A DNA stretch of 64,000 bases from Acidimicrobiia bacterium (GCA_030431785.1 JAUIIM010000003.1:23031-87030); one strand, 5' to 3'; shown: positions 5,022 to 60,092, counted from the stretch's first letter. Numbers and translations are program-made. The notes: generated by a model from the sequence alone, not told the origin.

Positions 5022-6023
5022 ATGACATCACCGCTTTCCGGTCGATCCTTCGTGAAAGAGGTCGATCACACCCCCGACGAGTTGCGCTACCTGCTCGGCC
5101 TGTCCTCGGCGCTGAAGTCTGCGAAGGCGAACGGAACCGAGGAGCGGCACCTCACAGGAAAGAGCGTCGCGCTGCTCTTCGAGAAGACATCAACCCGGAC
5201 TCGGGCTGCGTTCGAGGTTGCGGCCTACGACCAGGGTGCCCACGTCACCTACTTCGATCCTTCCGGTTCCCAGATGGGACACAAGGAATCGATCGCCGAT
5301 ACCGGTCGGGTGCTCGGTCGCATGTATGACGCCATCCAGTATCGGGGGGAACGTCAGGTCGACATCGAAGAGCTCGCCAGGACGGCCGGAGTACCTGTGT
5401 ACAACGGTCTCACGGATGAATGGCATCCGACGCAGATGCTCGCCGACTTCCTCACGATGCATGAGGAGAGTGGCAAGGATTACTCAGACCTGAGCTATGC
5501 GTTCGTTGGTGACTGTCGATTCAACATGGCACGCAGCCACGTCGTCACGGCGGCACTCCTCGGGAGCGATATTCGTCTGGCCTCGCCGGGTTCCTACGCC
5601 CCACCTCCGGAGGTGCTCGAGATGGCGCACGACATCGCCGCCACGACCGGCGCCTCGATCACCGTCACCGAGGATGTCGACGAGGCAGTCAAGGGTGTCG
5701 ATTTCGTCCACACGGACGTGTGGGTATCGATGGGTGAACCGAAGGGCGTCTGGTCGGGCCGGGTCGAGGCGCTCCGTGCGTATCAGGTGAACACGCCGCT
5801 GATGCGGGCGACGGGCAACGATGCTGCCAAGTTCATGCACTGCCTCCCGGCCTTCCACGACGCCAACACGAAGGTCGGCGCCGAGATGATCGCCCATACC
5901 GGCATGACCGACGGTCTGGAGGTCACCGACGAAGTCTTCGAGTCCGACGCCTCCGTCGTCTTCCCCCAAGCCGAAAACCGCCTCCACACCATCAAAGCAA
6001 TCCTGGTCGCAACCCTCACCTAG
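5022..6023 (+). CDS. arcB: Ornithine carbamoyltransferase (catabolic context)
   Basis: 333 aa. FEKTSTRTR carbamoyl-phosphate motif, HPTQ, HCLP. Follows arcC by 27 nt. Confidence 0.95.
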
Positions 6024-6035
6024 TTGCTTCCGCAG

Positions 6036-6200
6036 CCCCGGGTTGAACCCAGGGCTGCCAGTGTTCCTGAGAACACCTGGAGCCCTCAGTTCGTCAGAAA
6101 TCCGACCTTCTCCCGCTGAACGGTGGCAACCCCGGGTTGAACCCAGGGCTGTCAGTGTTCCTGACGACACCTGGAGCCCCGGGTTGAGCCCTGGGTTGCA
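6036..6200. repeat. REP/MITE-like intergenic repeat: two 50-nt copies plus a partial third
   Basis: 6036-6085 and 6130-6179 are 47/50 identical (CCCCGGGTTGAACCCAGGGCTGyCAGTGTTCCTGAsrACACCTGGAGCCC). Each is predicted to fold into two imperfect hairpins. A partial copy starts at 6177. Confidence 0.85.
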
Positions 6201-6238
6201 TCAGCAACGTCCCACCCGGGCTCGCCTACGCTGGCGGG

Positions 6239-7405
6239 ATGCCCAATGTTCGACATGTGCTTCGTGCGGTTTCTGGGGCGTTTGTGGTGCTCGGGATCGG
6301 GATGGCGATCACCGCGGTTGCCTGGCCGTCGATCGCAGAAGACCTCGACCTCCCGATCGCCGACCTCGGGATCCTGACTCTCATGTACGGCGCCGGCTAC
6401 ACCACCGCGACGCTGAGCAGCGGATGGATTGCAGAGCGCCTTCGGAGCGGTCACGCATTCATCGCTGGGGCTGGCGCCGCCGGGTTGGGATGCCTCCTCG
6501 GTGCAGGTGCGCCGTCGTGGTACCTGCTGCTCGTGGCGATGCCAGTCTTCGGGTTCGGAGCGGGCACGTTCGACGCCGCCGCAAACTCATACGTCGCCGT
6601 CCGCGGAAGCCAGAGGGAGATGGGGACGATCCACGGCCTCTTTGGTGTGGGGGCGATCATCGGCCCCCTTCTCGTCACTGGGCTCCTCACGATCGGGCTT
6701 TCCTGGCGCGTGTCGTTCCTCACCGTCGGACTTCTGTTCGTCGGAGCCGCCGTGACGATGGCCGTCGTCGCCAACGATGCGGCGATACCGACGAAGAAAT
6801 CGACCGGGGCTACCGGTCGTCTGCGCGTCACCTCACCGTTCGTGTGGTCGCTCCTCACGTTCTTCTTCTACTCGGGGATCGCTGCCACGACCGGCGTGTG
6901 GGCGTTCACCTACCTGACCGAACAACGGGGTATCGATCCGGGCTTCGGTGGTCTCATCGTTGCGTCGTACTGGGCGGCCTTCGCAGCGAGTCGATTCCTC
7001 CTCGGAACGGTCAGCGAACGGATGGAGCAACGTCGGACACTGCGGTATGCGATGATCCTCACCGTCGTTGGATACTTTGCGTTCTGGCTCTCGCCGTGGC
7101 CCGTCGCATCCGTCCTCGCATTGATCGTTGCCGGGTTCGCCCACGGACCGTTCTTCCCGATCGAACTCCTGGAGACGCGTGAACGGTTCGGGACGGTGCG
7201 GGCCCCCGCGGTCATCGGCTACCAGATCGGTGGCGTGAACATCGGTGGAGCGATCATCCCTGCAGGTGTCGGGCTCCTCGTCAGCGTCTGGGATCTCACC
7301 GTCGTTCCCCCTGTGCTCGCTCTGTTCGCAGTGCTCACGTTCGGAGCTACCGAAAAGCTCAACACGACCCAGCCGCCCGCCACGGTCGAACGCCCGGTCA
7401 GCTGA
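6239..7405 (+). CDS. MFS transporter
   Basis: 388 aa, about 12 hydrophobic segments, MFS-like N-terminal organisation. Confidence 0.85.
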   Translation: MPNVRHVLRAVSGAFVVLGIGMAITAVAWPSIAEDLDLPIADLGILTLMYGAGYTTATLSSGWIAERLRSGHAFIAGAGAAGLGCLLGAGAPSWYLLLVAMPVFGFGAGTFDAAANSYVAVRGSQREMGTIHGLFGVGAIIGPLLVTGLLTIGLSWRVSFLTVGLLFVGAAVTMAVVANDAAIPTKKSTGATGRLRVTSPFVWSLLTFFFYSGIAATTGVWAFTYLTEQRGIDPGFGGLIVASYWAAFAASRFLLGTVSERMEQRRTLRYAMILTVVGYFAFWLSPWPVASVLALIVAGFAHGPFFPIELLETRERFGTVRAPAVIGYQIGGVNIGGAIIPAGVGLLVSVWDLTVVPPVLALFAVLTFGATEKLNTTQPPATVERPVS

Positions 7406-7832
7406 CGCCTTCGAACCAGGCGGCGAAGCTTCCGAGGTTGCGTTGCCAAATCGATCGTAGGATCGGTCGCGCCAGCCGTTCCGTCAACGCACCTCCCACG
7501 ACGAGAGGGAAGTGCAGATCTTCCTCCCATTCGAACTCGGTCCCACCCGGTACGGATCGAAAGCGAAAGCGTCCCGTCCCTTGAACCAAACCGATGTGTA
7601 CGACCTCGATCGTCGACCGCTCCACCCAGTCAGTCACGATCATGATGTCCTCCGTACGGAGCGGACCGACCACGGTCTCGACGAACATCACGGTGCCGAC
7701 GCCGGTGCGTCGTTCACCCTCGAATCGGATCGACTCGGCATCCGCCATCCACTGCTCGTGCGACGCTAGATCGGCGACGGACGCCCACACTTCGTCGATC
7801 GGCGCAGGCACGACGACGGAAACGGTGATCAT
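7398..7832 (-). CDS. SRPBCC (polyketide cyclase/dehydrase-like) family protein
   Basis: Start moved to MITVSVVVPAPIDEVWASVADL, the typical SRPBCC N-terminus. The upstream ORF extension is Arg/Pro-rich. Confidence 0.8.
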   Translation of the reverse strand: MITVSVVVPAPIDEVWASVADLASHEQWMADAESIRFEGERRTGVGTVMFVETVVGPLRTEDIMIVTDWVERSTIEVVHIGLVQGTGRFRFRSVPGGTEFEWEEDLHFPLVVGGALTERLARPILRSIWQRNLGSFAAWFEGVS

Positions 7833-7959
7833 GGTGTGAGGGTATCCGTATCTACTCGGTCGCGGGCGCTCAGGTCCGTGGCGGGCCACAGCGATCCCAG
7901 ACGCGACACGAACCCGGCGCACAAGTCCGGGTCCGAGTCGACTCTTGGACGAGCCAGTG

Positions 7960-8238
7960 TCAGCGGGCGCCCATCTTCTTGATCACGAACGACGATCCCC
8001 ACACGACGATGATCGCACCGATGATGGCGCCGATGATTCCACCGAAGTCGAACTTGTCGGCGTCACCGATCCCGAACACACCGGTGAAGAGCCACCAGCC
8101 GAGCCAGGCACCGGCGAGACCGAGGACGATCGAGACGAGCCACGACACCGGTCCACTCATGTGCGAGAACGCATCATTCGGAACCACTGCACGAGCGATT
8201 GCGCCTGCAACAAGACCGAGCAGGATTGCTCCGATCAT
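7960..8238 (-). CDS. GlsB/YeaQ/YmgE family stress-response membrane protein
   Basis: 92 aa. MIGAILLGLVAGAIA ... GIIGAIIGAIIVV, characteristic of the transglycosylase-associated family. Confidence 0.85.
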   Translation of the reverse strand: MIGAILLGLVAGAIARAVVPNDAFSHMSGPVSWLVSIVLGLAGAWLGWWLFTGVFGIGDADKFDFGGIIGAIIGAIIVVWGSSFVIKKMGAR

Positions 8239-8298: not shown

Positions 8299-8781
8299 CT
8301 ACTCGTCCTCTTCGGACGCGGGAGGTCCGTTCGCGGGCTCGACGACGGCGGCGACATCACGCATCCCGAGACCGATCAGGATGAAGATGATGCCCATGAC
8401 GACAGCCATACCAGCGACACCGAATGCCACCACGGAGGTGAACAGTGATGCCTGGAGGAATGCGGACTGCATCGCCGTAGCCCGAAGTGGATCGTCCCGG
8501 TCGAGCTCGGCGTAGTACTTCCCACCCGTCGACTCGAGGGTGTGCTTCTCGATCACTCCGGCTTGGCAGTAGGCGGAGATCGGACCGTCGACTGGTTCGC
8601 CGGCGGCACAGTCCGCGTCGCCAGACACGACGATCTTCTGGTCAGCGAGGGTGTTGCCCACGATGACCCATGTGACGATGCCCGCGATGATGAAGACGAC
8701 TCCGACGACGAGCGTCGTGATCGATGCGGCCTTTCTCATGAGAATCCTTTCCATCGGCCGATTCGCCCACATCGTAGACAA
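8299..8781 (-). CDS. Hypothetical two-TM membrane protein
   Basis: 160 aa ORF with N- and C-terminal TM helices flanking a Cys-containing loop. Start uncertain. Confidence 0.6.
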   Translation of the reverse strand: MSTMWANRPMERILMRKAASITTLVVGVVFIIAGIVTWVIVGNTLADQKIVVSGDADCAAGEPVDGPISAYCQAGVIEKHTLESTGGKYYAELDRDDPLRATAMQSAFLQASLFTSVVAFGVAGMAVVMGIIFILIGLGMRDVAAVVEPANGPPASEEDE

Positions 8782-8850: not shown

Positions 8851-9923
8851 GGTTCGTACGAGATGCGTCGGATGGTCACCGGATTGTTGGCGTTCTCGGA
8901 ACCATGGTTGATGTACAGCGCACCGTCCGTACCGACGATGATGGCGTTCGGGCGACCGAATGATGCCTCGCCGCCGCGGCCGTCGACGTCACCGCCTTCA
9001 CCGTTGCCTGCGATGATCTCTACCTCGCCGGTCTCGATGTCGTAGCGGAAGACCACGAACGCACCCCTGCTCGTCACGAACAACGAACCGTCGAGGTAAA
9101 CACCGTGGGAAGTCGGCGCAGGGAACTTGTGCAGTTCTTCGACCTCCGATCCGTCAGCCGACACTGAGAAGATCCCTCCGTCACGGTGGTTGACCACATA
9201 GATCGTCCCGTCGTCGCCACGGGCGATGCCGTTGATGCCGTTGAAACCCGGATGGGTCACCCAGTCGACCACCGTTCCATCGGGCTCGATCCGGTGCAGG
9301 ATGTTCGAGTTGTATCCCTCGACGATGAGTGACCCGTCGTCGTTGACGAGAATCCCGGTGGGGCCGCGCACTGCCCTGATCCCTTCGGCGATCACCGACA
9401 CAGCACCGTCAGGAGCGATCTCGTAGACAGCGTTCGATCCGTAGCTCGATTGGTAGATGGTTCCGTCGTCGAGACGCACGGTCATGGTGAGGCTCTCCAT
9501 GCCGTCGTCGGCGGCCCATTCGGTGATCTCCCCGTCGGGCGTGACCTTCCATACGGTGTTCCCGACGTGCCCGGTGTACCCGAAGTCAGCCTGGTAGAAG
9601 TTGCCTGCGTCATCCATCGCCAAACCGCCCGTGGCGCTGTCGATGTCGGCGATGACCGTCGTCACGACCCAGTCGGTCGACACGGGATAGCCAAGCTCCT
9701 CCAATGGGGTCGGTGGGGCTGTGGTCGTGGTCTCCGGTGGAGAGGTCGTGCTGGTCGCCGGACCAGCCGTGGTCGTTGTGGTGGACGGGTTGGTCGATGT
9801 CGAGGTCTCATCCGTCGGGTCGGCCGACCCAGCACATGCAGCGAACAACAGGGCCGCTGCAGCGAGCAGAAAGATTCTTATCCGGATGTGCGGTGCGGAA
9901 CCGCTTGTTGGGACTCGCGTCAC
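8841..9923 (-). CDS. Secreted/lipoprotein beta-propeller (NHL / SMP-30-like repeats)
   Basis: 360 aa. Signal plus LFAACAGS lipobox, T-rich linker, repeated DGxxY/V..N motifs. Confidence 0.75.
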   Translation of the reverse strand: MTRVPTSGSAPHIRIRIFLLAAAALLFAACAGSADPTDETSTSTNPSTTTTTAGPATSTTSPPETTTTAPPTPLEELGYPVSTDWVVTTVIADIDSATGGLAMDDAGNFYQADFGYTGHVGNTVWKVTPDGEITEWAADDGMESLTMTVRLDDGTIYQSSYGSNAVYEIAPDGAVSVIAEGIRAVRGPTGILVNDDGSLIVEGYNSNILHRIEPDGTVVDWVTHPGFNGINGIARGDDGTIYVVNHRDGGIFSVSADGSEVEELHKFPAPTSHGVYLDGSLFVTSRGAFVVFRYDIETGEVEIIAGNGEGGDVDGRGGEASFGRPNAIIVGTDGALYINHGSENANNPVTIRRISYEPQG

Positions 9924-29448: not shown

Positions 29449-29862
29449 GCTGCTGCCCTACGCAATGAACTCTTGGTGTCGGGGACCGTGGGCGACACGC
29501 CGTCGTGTGCCCCGACGAGCGCTGCAAGGACGGTACTTGTCGGTCCGAGGGCGCCAAACCCTCCCAGTCTTTGTGTCAGATGCATGACAAATGCCTCTCT
29601 CATTGCTGTCCCTCACTCGAGGGCTGACACCAGCATGTCCTAGATCCGTGCTGGGCACATCAGGCTGAAGGCTAGAGCGACGTGGTCCGGCGGTCGATTC
29701 GCGCGTCGTACTTTCGGTGGATGACCGAGGTCGGATCGCCGTTCCACCCGTGGTTGGCCGAGATGCGCGCAATGGTGCCTACATGAGCTCATGCAGTCGT
29801 CGACGAAACGCAGCGATGCCAAGGGCTGCCCATTGACAAGGTAGAAGGATGATCCCGGAACC

Positions 29863-29912
29863 AGTGGCACGCCCGGAGGGACTCGAACCCCCAACCTTCT
29901 GATCCGTAGTCA
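29863..29912 (-). repeat. Duplicated 3' half of tRNA-Arg (distal att site of the island)
   Basis: 50 nt identical to 33414-33463. Covers the tRNA from the anticodon loop to CCA plus 2 nt. The 5' half is absent. Confidence 0.9.
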
Positions 29913-30033
29913 TGGGCGCGCCTCTCGTGACGACAGCGACGATCCAGGCTGCCCTCAGGCATTCCCCACTGCGCATCGCCACGTCACGCCTGCCGATAGG
30001 GGCGCCGTCGGGGCACGTTGCCAAGGCCCTGGG

Positions 30034-30052
30034 GCAGGCACGATATGCCTGC
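30034..30052. promoter_or_regulatory. Inverted repeat upstream of the island cassette (candidate operator)
   Basis: GCAGGCA-CGATA-TGCCTGC. Also a 9-nt direct repeat TGTGAAGTA at 30105-30113 and 30117-30125, the second copy reaching the A of the ATG at 30125. Confidence 0.3.
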
Positions 30053-30124
30053 TCCTCTCAGGTCAAGAGCTCGGATTCAAGTCAACGCCGCAGTTCGCCG
30101 CGAATGTGAAGTAGAGTGTGAAGT

Positions 30125-30937
30125 ATGAGTTGGACCCACTCCCCCCCGACACCCTTCGGTGACCCGTGCGAGCGAGTACCTCTTCCTGACGCGCCACTCG
30201 CGCTCGTCCTCGCGCAGGTTCGGTTCACGCCGATCGTCAGCATCGCCAACGCCGACTACATCGCCAGCTTCCAAGAGTCAATCCGCCAGAACTACCCGAT
30301 CCTGACACGCGAACTCCAGCAGCAGATTCAGCTCGGGCCACAGGGCCTGCAGACCACACCACCGCCAACTCCAGGGGTCATATGGCGCTTCGTGGACCAG
30401 GATCAGAATTGGCGCTTGTCGCTGGCTCAGGACTTCATCGCAGTCGAGACAAGTAACTACACGCACCGCGACGACTTCCATAAACGACTCGCCCAAGCGC
30501 TCACGGCACTCGAGGACCACTTGCGTCCGGGACTTACCACGCGCATTGGCGTTCGATACATGGACAGGATCGCAGGCGACATGACTACGAGGCTTGAGGA
30601 CTACGTGCGTCCTGAGTTGCTCAGCCTTGAAGCTACCGACCTTGGCTCAGCGAGACTGGATAGCGGAGTCACCGAAGCGCACTTCGCCGTGGACGATGTC
30701 GCCCTGAAGGCTCGGTGGGGTTCTCTACCGATCGGCGTTGTCCACGACCCCATCGTTCAACCGCTCGCCGACCAGAGAACCTGGGTGCTGGACCTGGACG
30801 CGTCAACAACCGATGCAGGACCGTTCGATGCCTCGGCCATTGCAGAGAGCGCCAAGAAGTTCGGTGAGGTGATCTATCGATTCTTCCGTTGGGCAGTTTC
30901 GGATGAATTCCTGAGGGAGTTCGGAGGGGACGTATGA
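30125..30937 (+). CDS. Island cassette gene 1: TIGR04255-like uncharacterised protein
   Basis: 270 aa. N-terminal PLPDAPLALVLAQVRF and the overall length resemble the TIGR04255 family as I recall it. Not verified by search. Confidence 0.65.
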   Translation: MSWTHSPPTPFGDPCERVPLPDAPLALVLAQVRFTPIVSIANADYIASFQESIRQNYPILTRELQQQIQLGPQGLQTTPPPTPGVIWRFVDQDQNWRLSLAQDFIAVETSNYTHRDDFHKRLAQALTALEDHLRPGLTTRIGVRYMDRIAGDMTTRLEDYVRPELLSLEATDLGSARLDSGVTEAHFAVDDVALKARWGSLPIGVVHDPIVQPLADQRTWVLDLDASTTDAGPFDASAIAESAKKFGEVIYRFFRWAVSDEFLREFGGDV

Positions 30938-31605
30938 CAACATTGAGCCAAGAGAAGAGCAGCACGTCATCTCTCGACCTGCATCCCATCAGCATCATCT
31001 ACAAAGGCACAGCAGCCGAACCCGACGGGACTGCGATGGTCGAGGCGACCACTTACGTTGTCGCTGGAGGCGTGGCGAAGGTCATCCACCATGAGGTCAG
31101 CGGCTGGGGCCGGATAGTGAAGGACACCTTGTCCAAGCTCTCCAGTAGCTCAGCCGGGTTCAGTGCTGATGAGCTTGTCATTGCCGTGGACAATGAGGAG
31201 CATCCCCTTCCCCATGCTGCGACTCGGGTTCGTGCTCTCTATGGGCAGTCCGGCCTGACCTGGAACCAGGTCGCGAGGATGTTCGGAGTGAGCCGACGAT
31301 CCGTCCATGCATGGGCGCGTGGCGGTCGCATGAACGCGCGGAACTCCGAGCGCCTCGCAACGATTGAGTCTGCCGTAGAAGCGAATCGAAGAGAGTCACC
31401 TAGTGCAACACGCGAGGCCCTCTTGAACGCGAGCAATGGCCCCTCTGTCTTCCAGCGCCTGACGAGCAATGCGAGAGCGCAAGCAGATCACAAGGACGAC
31501 GTGCACCGACTCCTCGCTTCGACCGCCGGCGGCGCGAGCGCACGGGGGGCGGACACATCATTCGAGAACGTTGACTGGCCGGCCACGAGCGGTGATGAGT
31601 ACTAG
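30934..31605 (+). CDS. Island cassette gene 2: protein with Xre/antitoxin-like HTH
   Basis: 223 aa. ATGA overlap with gene 1. LTWNQVARMFGVSRRSVHAWARGGRMNARNSERL. Confidence 0.65.
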   Translation: MTTLSQEKSSTSSLDLHPISIIYKGTAAEPDGTAMVEATTYVVAGGVAKVIHHEVSGWGRIVKDTLSKLSSSSAGFSADELVIAVDNEEHPLPHAATRVRALYGQSGLTWNQVARMFGVSRRSVHAWARGGRMNARNSERLATIESAVEANRRESPSATREALLNASNGPSVFQRLTSNARAQADHKDDVHRLLASTAGGASARGADTSFENVDWPATSGDEY

Positions 31606-32587
31606 GAGCAATGAAGAACCAGCTGCGCCTCTGTCTCCACTTGCGTCATGGAGGCAGGGCGATGTGGCCAAGCCTGGAGGTTTCCAGTGGTTGGCAAATG
31701 CGAACAGACCGTCTAGCGATGCGGCAGCTGAGTCGGTCGAAAGCGGCGCGGAGAACACCTTCACTGTCTGGGAGCGCTTCGAGGGCCTCGTAGTCCTCAC
31801 GCCGACCTGTGACATTCACCCGAGGGACAAAAAGGATCGGCCCTTCGTCACGGTGTGCCCGCTCGTCGAGCTTCCGGATGAAGTTGACGTAGGCAAGGCC
31901 AAGGACGGCTACCACATCCGATACGTACACGTGCCTGGAGCGTCCGATCCAGCTGCGTTTGCCGATCTTGATCGAACACAGACCATCGAAACCGGCCTCC
32001 TCGAGGAATGCGAAAGGATTCCCGGGCTACATACCGACGAAGAGCAAGCTGACTTCGCTAGAGCGGTGGCCCGCAAGTTCAATCGTTTCGCCTTCCCAGA
32101 CGCGCTGCAGAGGGCAATCAGCAAATGGCGGAACAAGGTCGTAGACAGCCACTCCAAGCCGAACAGCGCGGAGGGTCAGCTCTTTCGCGATGCACTCACC
32201 ATCCGTGCAGCCGCGGAGCCGTCCTGGAGCGAGAACAGCATCGAAGTCACCATCTACGTGATCATGCCCGACGGGTGGCTACCGGAATCCAGTCCGGCGG
32301 GTACGCGCACCGTCGGAGTCGTGGATGAGCTGGCCAGAATGCGAACCTCCGAAATCGCCAAACGCCTCGTGACCGAGTCCGATGACCAAGTTCGGCTCGA
32401 TCTCGTCGAAGCTCTCCAAGTGGGCTGGACTCGAAGGTGTAGACCGGCTGATGAGATCAGCGATGTCTCATTCGTTCTCATCGGTGCGAACGAGTTCACC
32501 TATGCAGACGTTGAGGCAAGCCAGTCGCTCGACCTGGACTTCGTTTCCGGAGAAGATGACGAAGACATCGACGATGAGGGCGACTAG
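31595..32587 (+). CDS. Island cassette gene 3: orphan protein with poly-acidic C-terminus
   Basis: 330 aa from ATG 31595 (11-nt overlap with gene 2). Ends SGEDDEDIDDEGD. No family recognised. Confidence 0.6.
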   Translation: MSTRSNEEPAAPLSPLASWRQGDVAKPGGFQWLANANRPSSDAAAESVESGAENTFTVWERFEGLVVLTPTCDIHPRDKKDRPFVTVCPLVELPDEVDVGKAKDGYHIRYVHVPGASDPAAFADLDRTQTIETGLLEECERIPGLHTDEEQADFARAVARKFNRFAFPDALQRAISKWRNKVVDSHSKPNSAEGQLFRDALTIRAAAEPSWSENSIEVTIYVIMPDGWLPESSPAGTRTVGVVDELARMRTSEIAKRLVTESDDQVRLDLVEALQVGWTRRCRPADEISDVSFVLIGANEFTYADVEASQSLDLDFVSGEDDEDIDDEGD

Positions 32588-32766
32588 TCGAGGACCTGCA
32601 AGCCAGGGTGCTGACGGGGAATCCGAAGGTCGGGCAATGGTTCGGCGGGGGCGAACTCCCTCAACCACAAGGATCACGGGTGAACTCGACTCGCCGTCAG
32701 ATGCACTCTGGGGGCGCGGGAGGGGCATAGCAGTTGATCTCGCCGCTCATCCTGGGCGATCGAGCT

Positions 32767-33117
32767 TCAGGCTGAGTCGTTCCTCGGAAGCGTTGGGAGG
32801 GCGGAGATGTGATCGATCCGTCCATCCCGATGAACGCCCGCGACCTGAACAATGCCGGACGCGCCGTTCACGACTTTGCCGAGATCATCCAGTGCTGATG
32901 CATCTGCGCTCACGGCAGCCATGATCGAGTTGGAGAGCTTGTCGATGGTGGCGTGTCCCTTGTAGGTGTTCATCGTGACGGTGATGTCGTCGTGCCCCGC
33001 CATGTCTCGGACATCACTGATCGGAACCCCCTTGTCGATCCAGATGTCCACGAAAGTCGCGCGCAGGGAGTGTGGCGTGCAGTGATCAAGGCCATTTGAC
33101 GCACCTACCCGTCTCAC
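32767..33117 (-). pseudogene. Tyrosine recombinase/integrase, C-terminal catalytic fragment only
   Basis: TPHSLRATFV (HxxR), MAGHDDITVTMNTY (H...Y). The frame is closed by a stop 11 codons upstream of the first listed residue. Only ~300 nt separate it from the tRNA. Confidence 0.75.
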
Positions 33118-33415
33118 GACACGTTTCGAGTCAGACTCGATGCGCGATCACGCCAGCTGAGGGTTACGTCCCGGGAGCTACCGGGCGCTACCGGTAGCTC
33201 CCGGTAGCTCCGCTCACGATACGACGATGCCCTCCCATGCACTCCTAGGGGCGCTGTATGGGCGCGCGACGCAAGTATGGAGTGTGGAGTCGCAAAGCCC
33301 ACGGTTGAGCCGATTGGAGCATCACCAGTTGCAATCCCTTGACAGATATCAAGAGAACACAGTGATGCCAAGGGTTTGACAGTTGTCAGGGGGACGGATT
33401 AGACCCTTGAAGGAG

Positions 33416-33492
33416 TGGCACGCCCGGAGGGACTCGAACCCCCAACCTTCTGATCCGTAGTCAGACACTCTATCCAATTGAGCTACGGGCGC
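33416..33492 (-). tRNA. tRNA-Arg (anticodon ACG)
   Basis: Minus strand GCGCCCGTAGCTCAATTGGATAGAGTGTCTGACTACGGATCAGAAGGTTGGGGGTTCGAGTCCCTCCGGGCGTGCCA folds as a cloverleaf with loop CTACGGA. Confidence 0.95.
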
Positions 33493-59997: not shown

Positions 59998-60002
59998 TGT
60001 AG

Positions 60003-60092
60003 CGGAGAGGGAGGGATTTGAACCCTCGAGGAGGTTCAACACCCCCTACTCGCTTAGCAGGCGAGCGCCTTCGGCCACTCGGCCACCTCTCC
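60003..60092 (-). tRNA. tRNA-Ser (anticodon GCU)
   Basis: Minus strand GGAGAGGTGGCCGAGTGGCCGAAGGCGCTCGCCTGCTAAGCGAG...GGTTCAAATCCCTCCCTCTCCG with long variable arm. CCA not encoded. Confidence 0.95.

Follow-up and report, generated by a model that had tools for sequence, protein, structure and literature searches.

Within a 64,000-nt stretch of the genome of an Acidimicrobiia bacterium (GCA_030431785.1, JAUIIM010000003.1:23031-87030; hereafter the window), positions 29863-33492 hold a small genomic island at a tRNA-Arg(ACG) gene, and the cargo of this island is an operon of three genes on the plus strand: gene 1, a member of the TIGR04255 family (30125-30937; 270 aa), gene 2, for an Xre-type helix-turn-helix (HTH) protein (30934-31605; 223 aa), and gene 3, for a candidate effector (31595-32587; 330 aa), which together make up a cassette of 2.5 kb. 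The intact tRNA-Arg(ACG) gene lies on the minus strand at 33416-33492 (detected by ARAGORN, and by Rfam RF00005 with 64.7 bits). Its 3′ 48 nt and the 2 nt beyond its 3′ end form the proximal attachment-site repeat (33414-33463, minus strand), which recurs at 29863-29912 (minus strand; 50/50 nt identical); this distal attachment-site repeat is the displaced native 3′ half of the tRNA gene, in which neither ARAGORN nor Rfam calls a tRNA. The perfect recurrence reported in the initial annotation, which was made by reading the sequence alone, was recovered by a repeat finder as the last 50 nt of the top repeat family (29851-29912 / 33402-33463; 62 nt, 92% identity). All remaining repeats in the scanned 9.5 kb are imperfect and no longer than 31 nt, so that the 50-nt tRNA repeat is not attributable to chance.

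Between gene 3 and the tRNA gene, an open reading frame (ORF) on the minus strand (32767-33117) encodes the remnant of a tyrosine recombinase. Recombinase-like sequence is confined to positions ~32959-33114; it matches PF00589 Phage_integrase (E 6.6e-8) over profile positions 115-166 of 172, and PHROG_1 integrase (3.9e-12). The HSLR, GH, and Y motifs are present, a stop codon lies upstream, and the ~60 last catalytic residues survive. The remnant is separated from the tRNA gene by ~300 nt, and no further recombinase-like sequence was detected at 32588-33415, either by six-frame translation or by tblastn with five candidate recombinases taken from neighbouring ORFs of related loci; at least the N-terminal two-thirds of the recombinase has therefore been deleted. 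With the recombinase reduced to ~60 residues, the element is fixed and unable to excise by itself. The tRNA gene, the repeat pair, and the recombinase remnant all uphold the initial annotation of a decayed tRNA-Arg island that retains only the C-terminal catalytic part of its recombinase. A direct repeat derived from the tRNA 3′ end and a tyrosine recombinase remnant beside the intact tRNA gene mark 29863-33463 as what remains of an element that had integrated into the tRNA-Arg(ACG) gene, within its 3′ half. A near-perfect palindrome (33174-33211; 19-nt arms, 95% complementary, no spacer) was also found between the recombinase remnant and the tRNA gene, and may represent the scar of a deletion, a terminator, or a binding site for a protein.

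The G+C content of the island (0.602) is the lowest of any 3.5-kb stretch in the window (mean 0.629, standard deviation 0.009), ~3 standard deviations under the mean. G+C content at third codon positions (GC3) is 0.67-0.70 in the three genes versus 0.74-0.83 in seven flanking genes, in agreement with the preference for A/T-ending codons that had been estimated by eye. The flanks are occupied by ordinary ABC-transporter and aminotransferase genes. Rfam families in the region are limited to the tRNA, and no promoter or terminator consensus sites were found. Pairwise alignment of the attachment-site flanks (29780-29862 with 33330-33413) gave ~70% similarity that continues for another ~60 nt beyond the 3′ end of the tRNA; the element thus seems to have carried with it a related tRNA-downstream segment of its own, coming from a related earlier host.

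The three genes are translationally coupled, as initially annotated, with an overlap of 4 nt between genes 1 and 2 (ATGA, 30934-30937) and of 11 nt between genes 2 and 3 (31595-31605). Two peptide patterns from gene 1 were run against 185,579 genomes, each species being represented by one, and 225 loci were confirmed, of which the best 80 were analysed. In these 80 loci, gene 1 is followed by gene 2 in 78, and the third position is taken by gene 3 in 49 and by a variant third gene in 25 more. The overlap between genes 1 and 2 is 4 nt in 81/84 loci, and the spacing between genes 2 and 3 is always -20 to +7 nt; the spacing seen in the window, -11 nt, is also the most frequent class. Gene-3 homologues were found in nine distinct contexts, and in all of them the trio is present in the same order; homology in these contexts was checked gene by gene through alignment, including a distant Streptomyces copy (hhalign probability 100%). 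Homologues of genes 2 and 3 are still encoded downstream of a TIGR04255 protein that is just 32% identical to gene 1, and also downstream of an Acinetobacter TIGR04255 copy. These loci substantiate the co-localization of the three genes in other genomes that the initial annotation had proposed as a check.

The variant third gene (~255 aa) shares the N-terminal domain of gene 3 (RQGDI, THDCQLD, and SPLV; hhalign probability 87%, E 3.9e-6) and has a different C-terminal domain; all 25 loci with this variant operon belong to Acidimicrobiia or Actinomycetes. In these loci, which derive from metagenome-assembled genomes (L024, L025, L031, L042, L052, L063, L072, L086, and 17 more), gene 2 is longer (~264 aa), and the third gene keeps the conserved N-terminal cysteine together with a C-terminal domain unrelated to that of gene 3. 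Genes for DNA methylases of restriction-modification type lie directly downstream in several variant loci (e.g. L034, L042, L051, and L063).

Gene 3 (330 aa) had been described as an orphan matching nothing recognizable, which proved incorrect: an exhaustive HMMER search placed it in a large family of 1,942 clusters (50% identity), with E values under 1e-30 for 766 clusters, and Pfam and NCBIfam hold no model for this family. A word-indexed search returned 23 relatives only, and no match to gene 3 was found in Pfam, NCBIfam, PADLOC, or PHROG. The invariant residues of the family are Q21, D23, C72, and R164, which fall inside its motifs W-RQGD, TQTCD, and RFAFPD. The W-RQGD motif (residues 19-23) lies upstream of the start used in the public gene call (307-aa product), so the start at 31595, as initially annotated, is the better one. 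The poly-acidic tail to which the initial annotation drew attention is present, although it is lineage-specific, and conservation is instead seen in a LDLDxLS motif just before the tail. The AlphaFold2 model of gene 3 (pLDDT 86, predicted local distance difference test) comprises, at the N-terminal end, a barrel and then a long helix (together residues ~15-162), and after these an alpha/beta C-terminal domain. In a Foldseek comparison of this model with the PDB, the top 50 matches are all MazF, PemK, MoxT, or YdcE toxins (best match E 4.6e-4, probability 1.00). The order of strands and helix in the predicted model is that of a barrel followed by a long helix, corresponding to the SH3-like barrel and C-terminal helix of MazF/PemK/CcdB toxins.

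Gene 2 gave three Pfam matches at residues 96-140, all of them under the cut-off: HTH_3 (19.3 bits; cut-off 23), HTH_23 (21.6 bits; cut-off 24.6), and HTH_17. The homologue in one variant operon (L042) exceeds the HTH_3 cut-off with 24.3 bits, which supports the initial assignment of gene 2 as an Xre-type HTH protein. Of the 72 homologues found, 60 were compared, revealing a conserved core (residues ~98-180) with the motif SGLTWxQLAxLFGVSRRSxHxWAxG and a helical extension, and an N-terminus that is variable except for a small GTS/TTS motif. A membrane segment was considered for gene 2 and rejected, as hydropathy exceeds 1.6 in only 3/60 homologues. Two Acidimicrobiia genomes associated with sponges have, in place of gene 2, an ORF of ~145 aa (L044, 6741-7172; L054, 6726-7172); neither ORF has a match to gene 2 (HTH), the L054 copy has the GTS motif, and gene 3 is full length in L054.

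Gene 1 matches TIGR04255 far above the cut-off (E 1.8e-47; 162.3 bits, cut-off 30) and along the full length of the profile (positions 2-252 of 252), which confirms the family membership that had been proposed from its N-terminus and size; it has no Pfam family. The AlphaFold2 model (55 homologues; pLDDT 95, predicted TM-score 0.90) consists of two similar beta-alpha-beta units. This predicted fold has no convincing match in the PDB (template modelling score [TM] ≤0.39), the weak matches being to S-adenosylmethionine decarboxylase (AdoMetDC; TM 0.26), guanidino kinases (0.32-0.39), and TATA-binding protein (TBP); none of these low-TM matches was adopted as a functional assignment. The viral model closest to it is that of an unnamed phage protein (E 2e-8; TM 0.51/0.65); TBP-like proteins, at low TM, and the large subunits of poxvirus-type early transcription factor (VETF) come next. 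We read the model as a duplicated TBP-like alpha/beta fold, and we assign no function from it. R144, D223, and D225 are invariant in the family, and Q31, R33, R140, and Y145 nearly so. When profiles of gene 1 and gene 3 were searched against PDB sequences, no match was returned. Literature searches for TIGR04255 or CHP04255 returned no paper naming either, and broader searches returned no description of an operon of genes 1, 2, and 3.

Gene 3 is damaged in at least seven loci, in most of which genes 1 and 2 are intact. The lesions comprise an internal deletion (L028), an in-frame stop (L037), a 1.6-kb insertion (L060), frameshifts (L061), reduction to a 38-residue remnant (L088), an insertion sequence element after residue 30 (L046), and truncations (L044 and a Kocuria plasmid). 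L094 is also among the loci in which gene 3 is a pseudogene, truncated, or interrupted. Preferential decay of gene 3 would be expected if it encodes a toxic effector.

The trio is hosted by more than ten bacterial phyla, with representatives in Acidimicrobiia, Streptomyces, Cyanobacteria, Myxococcota, Acidobacteriota, Gemmatimonadota, Planctomycetota, Deinococcota, Rokubacteria, and Alpha- and Gammaproteobacteria. Two trio loci lie inside actinomycete-type integrative conjugative elements (with FtsK/SpoIIIE, RepSA, HTH_17 excisionase [Xis], and integrase [Int]), one adjoins a TrwC relaxase, and another adjoins a UvrD helicase and a Mrr-like nuclease. The trio is also borne on plasmids in Rhizobium etli, Chroococcidiopsis (beside an integrase), and Kocuria (beside a relaxase); RefSeq labels the plasmid genes as TIGR04255 family, hypothetical or transcriptional regulator, and hypothetical, respectively. 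A tRNA gene is located within 6 kb of the trio in 15/60 loci, and in three of these it is tRNA-Arg(ACG). At one locus (L009), the trio ends 220 nt from an opposite-strand tRNA-Arg(ACG) (5770-5844), with a HigB/HTH-M78 pair on the other side; the locus is from a lineage in which gene 3 is ~33% identical, and there is no room for a recombinase before the tRNA. Just downstream of the trio in another locus (L013), a 125-nt repeat pair (8518-8642 / 9393-9517; 85% identity) that includes tRNA-Thr(CGT) suggests that a second small element has inserted in tandem at the same tRNA. The window itself contains one other tRNA gene, tRNA-Ser(GCT) (60002-60092, minus strand; ARAGORN).

Recurrent families among the 272 immediate neighbours of the trio include type I restriction-modification methylase and specificity subunits and type III methylases, as well as Septu PtuA, BrxC, SoFic/Fic, PIN, RadC, and integrases. 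In keeping with the initial annotation, which conserved core-genome contexts would have refuted, the trio occurs on mobile elements and beside defence genes (integrative conjugative elements, plasmids, and restriction and toxin neighbours). The sole cargo of the window island is a three-gene operon, self-contained and horizontally mobile, which recurs as one unit in different phyla.

As in type II (tripartite) toxin–antitoxin systems, the trio is a compact, co-oriented, and coupled operon that is conserved as a unit and spread horizontally. We infer, with moderate confidence, that the operon functions as a tripartite toxin–antitoxin-like conflict module. Under this proposal, gene 3 would encode a growth-arresting effector, and gene 2 would bind the operator and probably neutralize gene 3, serving as both upstream antitoxin and autoregulator. 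Gene 1 may be an accessory sensor or modulator controlling the timing of effector release; the conserved Arg, Asp, and Tyr residues of gene 1 are placed on the predicted strands of the TBP-like fold and may bind a ligand or nucleic acid. Translational coupling would set the stoichiometry of the three proteins. The benefit to the host or carrier could be phage defence of the abortive-infection type, stabilization of the carrier element, or both. MazEF, PemIK (Kis-Kid), and CcdAB offer the closest parallel to such an arrangement, in that gene 3 is predicted to have a MazF/CcdB-type barrel and helix, is encoded directly downstream of (and coupled to) the gene for a DNA-binding protein, and travels with its partners on plasmids and integrative elements.

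A number of observations weigh against this proposal, beginning with the relationship between gene 3 and MazF, which is one of predicted fold. Foldseek matches of at least 100 columns have a TM on the target of 0.50-0.62, with a root-mean-square deviation of up to 7 Å. Neither gene 3 of the window nor sets of 23 and 89 family members match PemK_toxin or CcdB in Pfam, and an hhalign comparison of the family with five sequences of MazF, Kid, and ChpBK gave a probability of 0.3%. Since hhalign shows no similarity, we do not claim gene 3 as a member of the MazF family; the MazF/CcdB resemblance suggested in the initial annotation is upheld for the predicted fold and fails at the level of sequence profiles. 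MazF, PemK, and CcdB toxins are single-domain proteins of ~100-120 aa; gene 3 has 330 aa and two domains, which far exceeds the size of classical type II toxins, and its additional C-terminal domain is conserved. Its invariant residue set (Q21, D23, C72, and R164) differs from theirs and includes a cysteine; presumably it does not correspond to the catalytic Arg/Thr pair known for MazF. The upstream partner also differs: where those systems have an AbrB or ribbon-helix-helix antitoxin, the trio has a ~220-aa Xre-type HTH protein, and TIGR04255 is an obligatory third gene. No system model in PADLOC-DB 2.0.0 matches gene 1 or gene 3, and the lone match of gene 2 is a 23-residue HTH match to mad1 (E 0.0015), in accordance with the statement in the initial annotation that no named defence system fits. 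The restriction and toxin genes in the neighbour census are mixed with housekeeping genes, and, because the census relied on crude ORF calls and had no genome-wide background, it is only suggestive. The loci of the genome scan were found through gene 1, so that in this set loss of gene 1 is not scorable alongside decay of gene 3. As to the island, the exact-junction pattern of an empty site was absent from the metagenome contigs searched; the closest relative of the flanking ABC gene, at 75% identity, sits on a contig of 1.5 kb that ends short of the tRNA, and synteny is not kept in more distant relatives.

In tripartite toxin–antitoxin systems, such as HigB-HigA with a SecB-like chaperone (‘TAC’), PaaR-PaaA-ParE, and omega-epsilon-zeta, a third component joins the toxin and its DNA-binding partner. 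The trio resembles these systems as three co-transcribed, coupled genes; however, the third component would be a TIGR04255 protein of predicted TBP-like fold rather than a chaperone or a separate repressor, it is encoded by the first gene of the operon, and none of the trio proteins belongs to the families of these systems. The island shares with tRNA-targeting islands that carry defence cargo a direct repeat of the tRNA 3′ end, a tyrosine recombinase beside the tRNA, a lower G+C content, and a small accessory cargo. It differs from them in that its recombinase is down to ~60 residues and the element is fixed, and in that its cargo is a single operon without known function.

A further setting in which TIGR04255-like genes occur is the P2-like phages, of which the cos-proximal region is a reported anti-phage hotspot (Rousset et al., 2022; PMC9122126). 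Burkholderia members of this phage group carry a TIGR04255-like gene (E 2.3e-31) at the head of a coupled three-gene cassette that is located between the integrase and portal genes and adjoins this region. Burkholderia phage vB_FKKS3 (L181; record positions 6113-8143) and six similar phages carry the cassette, with partners of 175 and 236 aa, between the integrase and a HigB/HigA-like toxin/antidote pair that lies beside the portal gene. As in the window operon, TIGR04255 leads a three-gene cassette; unlike the window operon, its two partners are unrelated to genes 2 and 3, and they have no match in Pfam. No test of this cassette was found in literature searches. The phage cassette provides supporting evidence for TIGR04255 as a reusable component. 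More tentatively, the trio could be a widespread and hitherto undescribed tripartite abortive-infection system, in which TIGR04255, with its TBP-like fold, would sense phage nucleic acid or protein and release a new class of MazF-fold effector that acts through a conserved Cys/Asp site; in that case TIGR04255 would serve as a sensor of general use that is also paired with other effectors, as in the Burkholderia P2-like phages. We regard this fuller scheme as possible rather than probable.

Among the alternatives to a toxin–antitoxin-like module, a non-toxic regulatory or sensory module that is carried by mobile elements (for transfer, exclusion, or stress response) and has no toxin–antitoxin logic is rather unlikely. 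Such a module might well have an HTH protein at mid-operon; moreover, TBP-like folds and SH3-like barrels are also nucleic-acid-binding folds, no catalytic motif was identified in the trio, and no defence model matches it. However, the occurrence of the trio on many unrelated carriers, and at chromosomal sites without transfer genes, indicates that it is not part of the machinery of any one element, and the selective decay of gene 3 and the company of toxin and restriction genes are a better fit to a costly conflict gene.

We also consider it improbable that the roles are swapped, with gene 1 as an enzymatic effector, gene 3 as a sensor, adaptor, or regulator, and gene 2 as a transcriptional regulator only. 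It is gene 3, and not gene 2, that is repeatedly broken (loss of gene 1 being invisible here), and the only toxin-like fold of the operon is predicted for gene 3. The invariant charged residues of gene 1, together with Q31, R33, R140, and Y145, do lie on predicted beta-strands in a manner reminiscent of an active or ligand site, and the fold bears a weak resemblance to guanidino kinases and AdoMetDC, although at TM ≤0.39 neither is a convincing enzyme match. The retention of TIGR04255 with different partner genes in the Burkholderia phages would be consistent with such an exchange of roles, as would the replacement of the C-terminal domain of the third gene between variants, which is often seen in sensors. 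It is highly improbable, and already contradicted, that the three genes belong to the ordinary core or housekeeping set, or are spurious ORFs, and that the repeat arose when the tRNA region was duplicated locally: the similarity of the repeat flanks that reaches weakly beyond the tRNA would accord with this, but a recombinase remnant adjoins the intact tRNA, G+C and GC3 are below those of the flanks, all three proteins have many homologues and conserved motifs (with genes 1 and 3 confidently modelled), the trio is patchily distributed over phyla and plasmids, and no profile search placed any of its members in a housekeeping family (an assignment that would have refuted the initial annotation).

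Compact conflict modules on mobile islands, such as we propose for the trio, are familiar in general; its three-component architecture has not been described, nor have two of its protein families. Proteins of no known function are commonly annotated as TIGR04255 in genomes, and this family here supplies the first gene of a strictly conserved three-gene operon, the third member of which defines a large protein family (~1,900 clusters) without a database model. Conjugative elements, plasmids, and tRNA islands carry the operon from phylum to phylum, and it is found amid restriction and toxin genes. If the trio is indeed a toxin–antitoxin or anti-phage system, both its three-component architecture and its branch of MazF-fold effectors would be new, and a function would be gained for thousands of proteins that are now labelled hypothetical.

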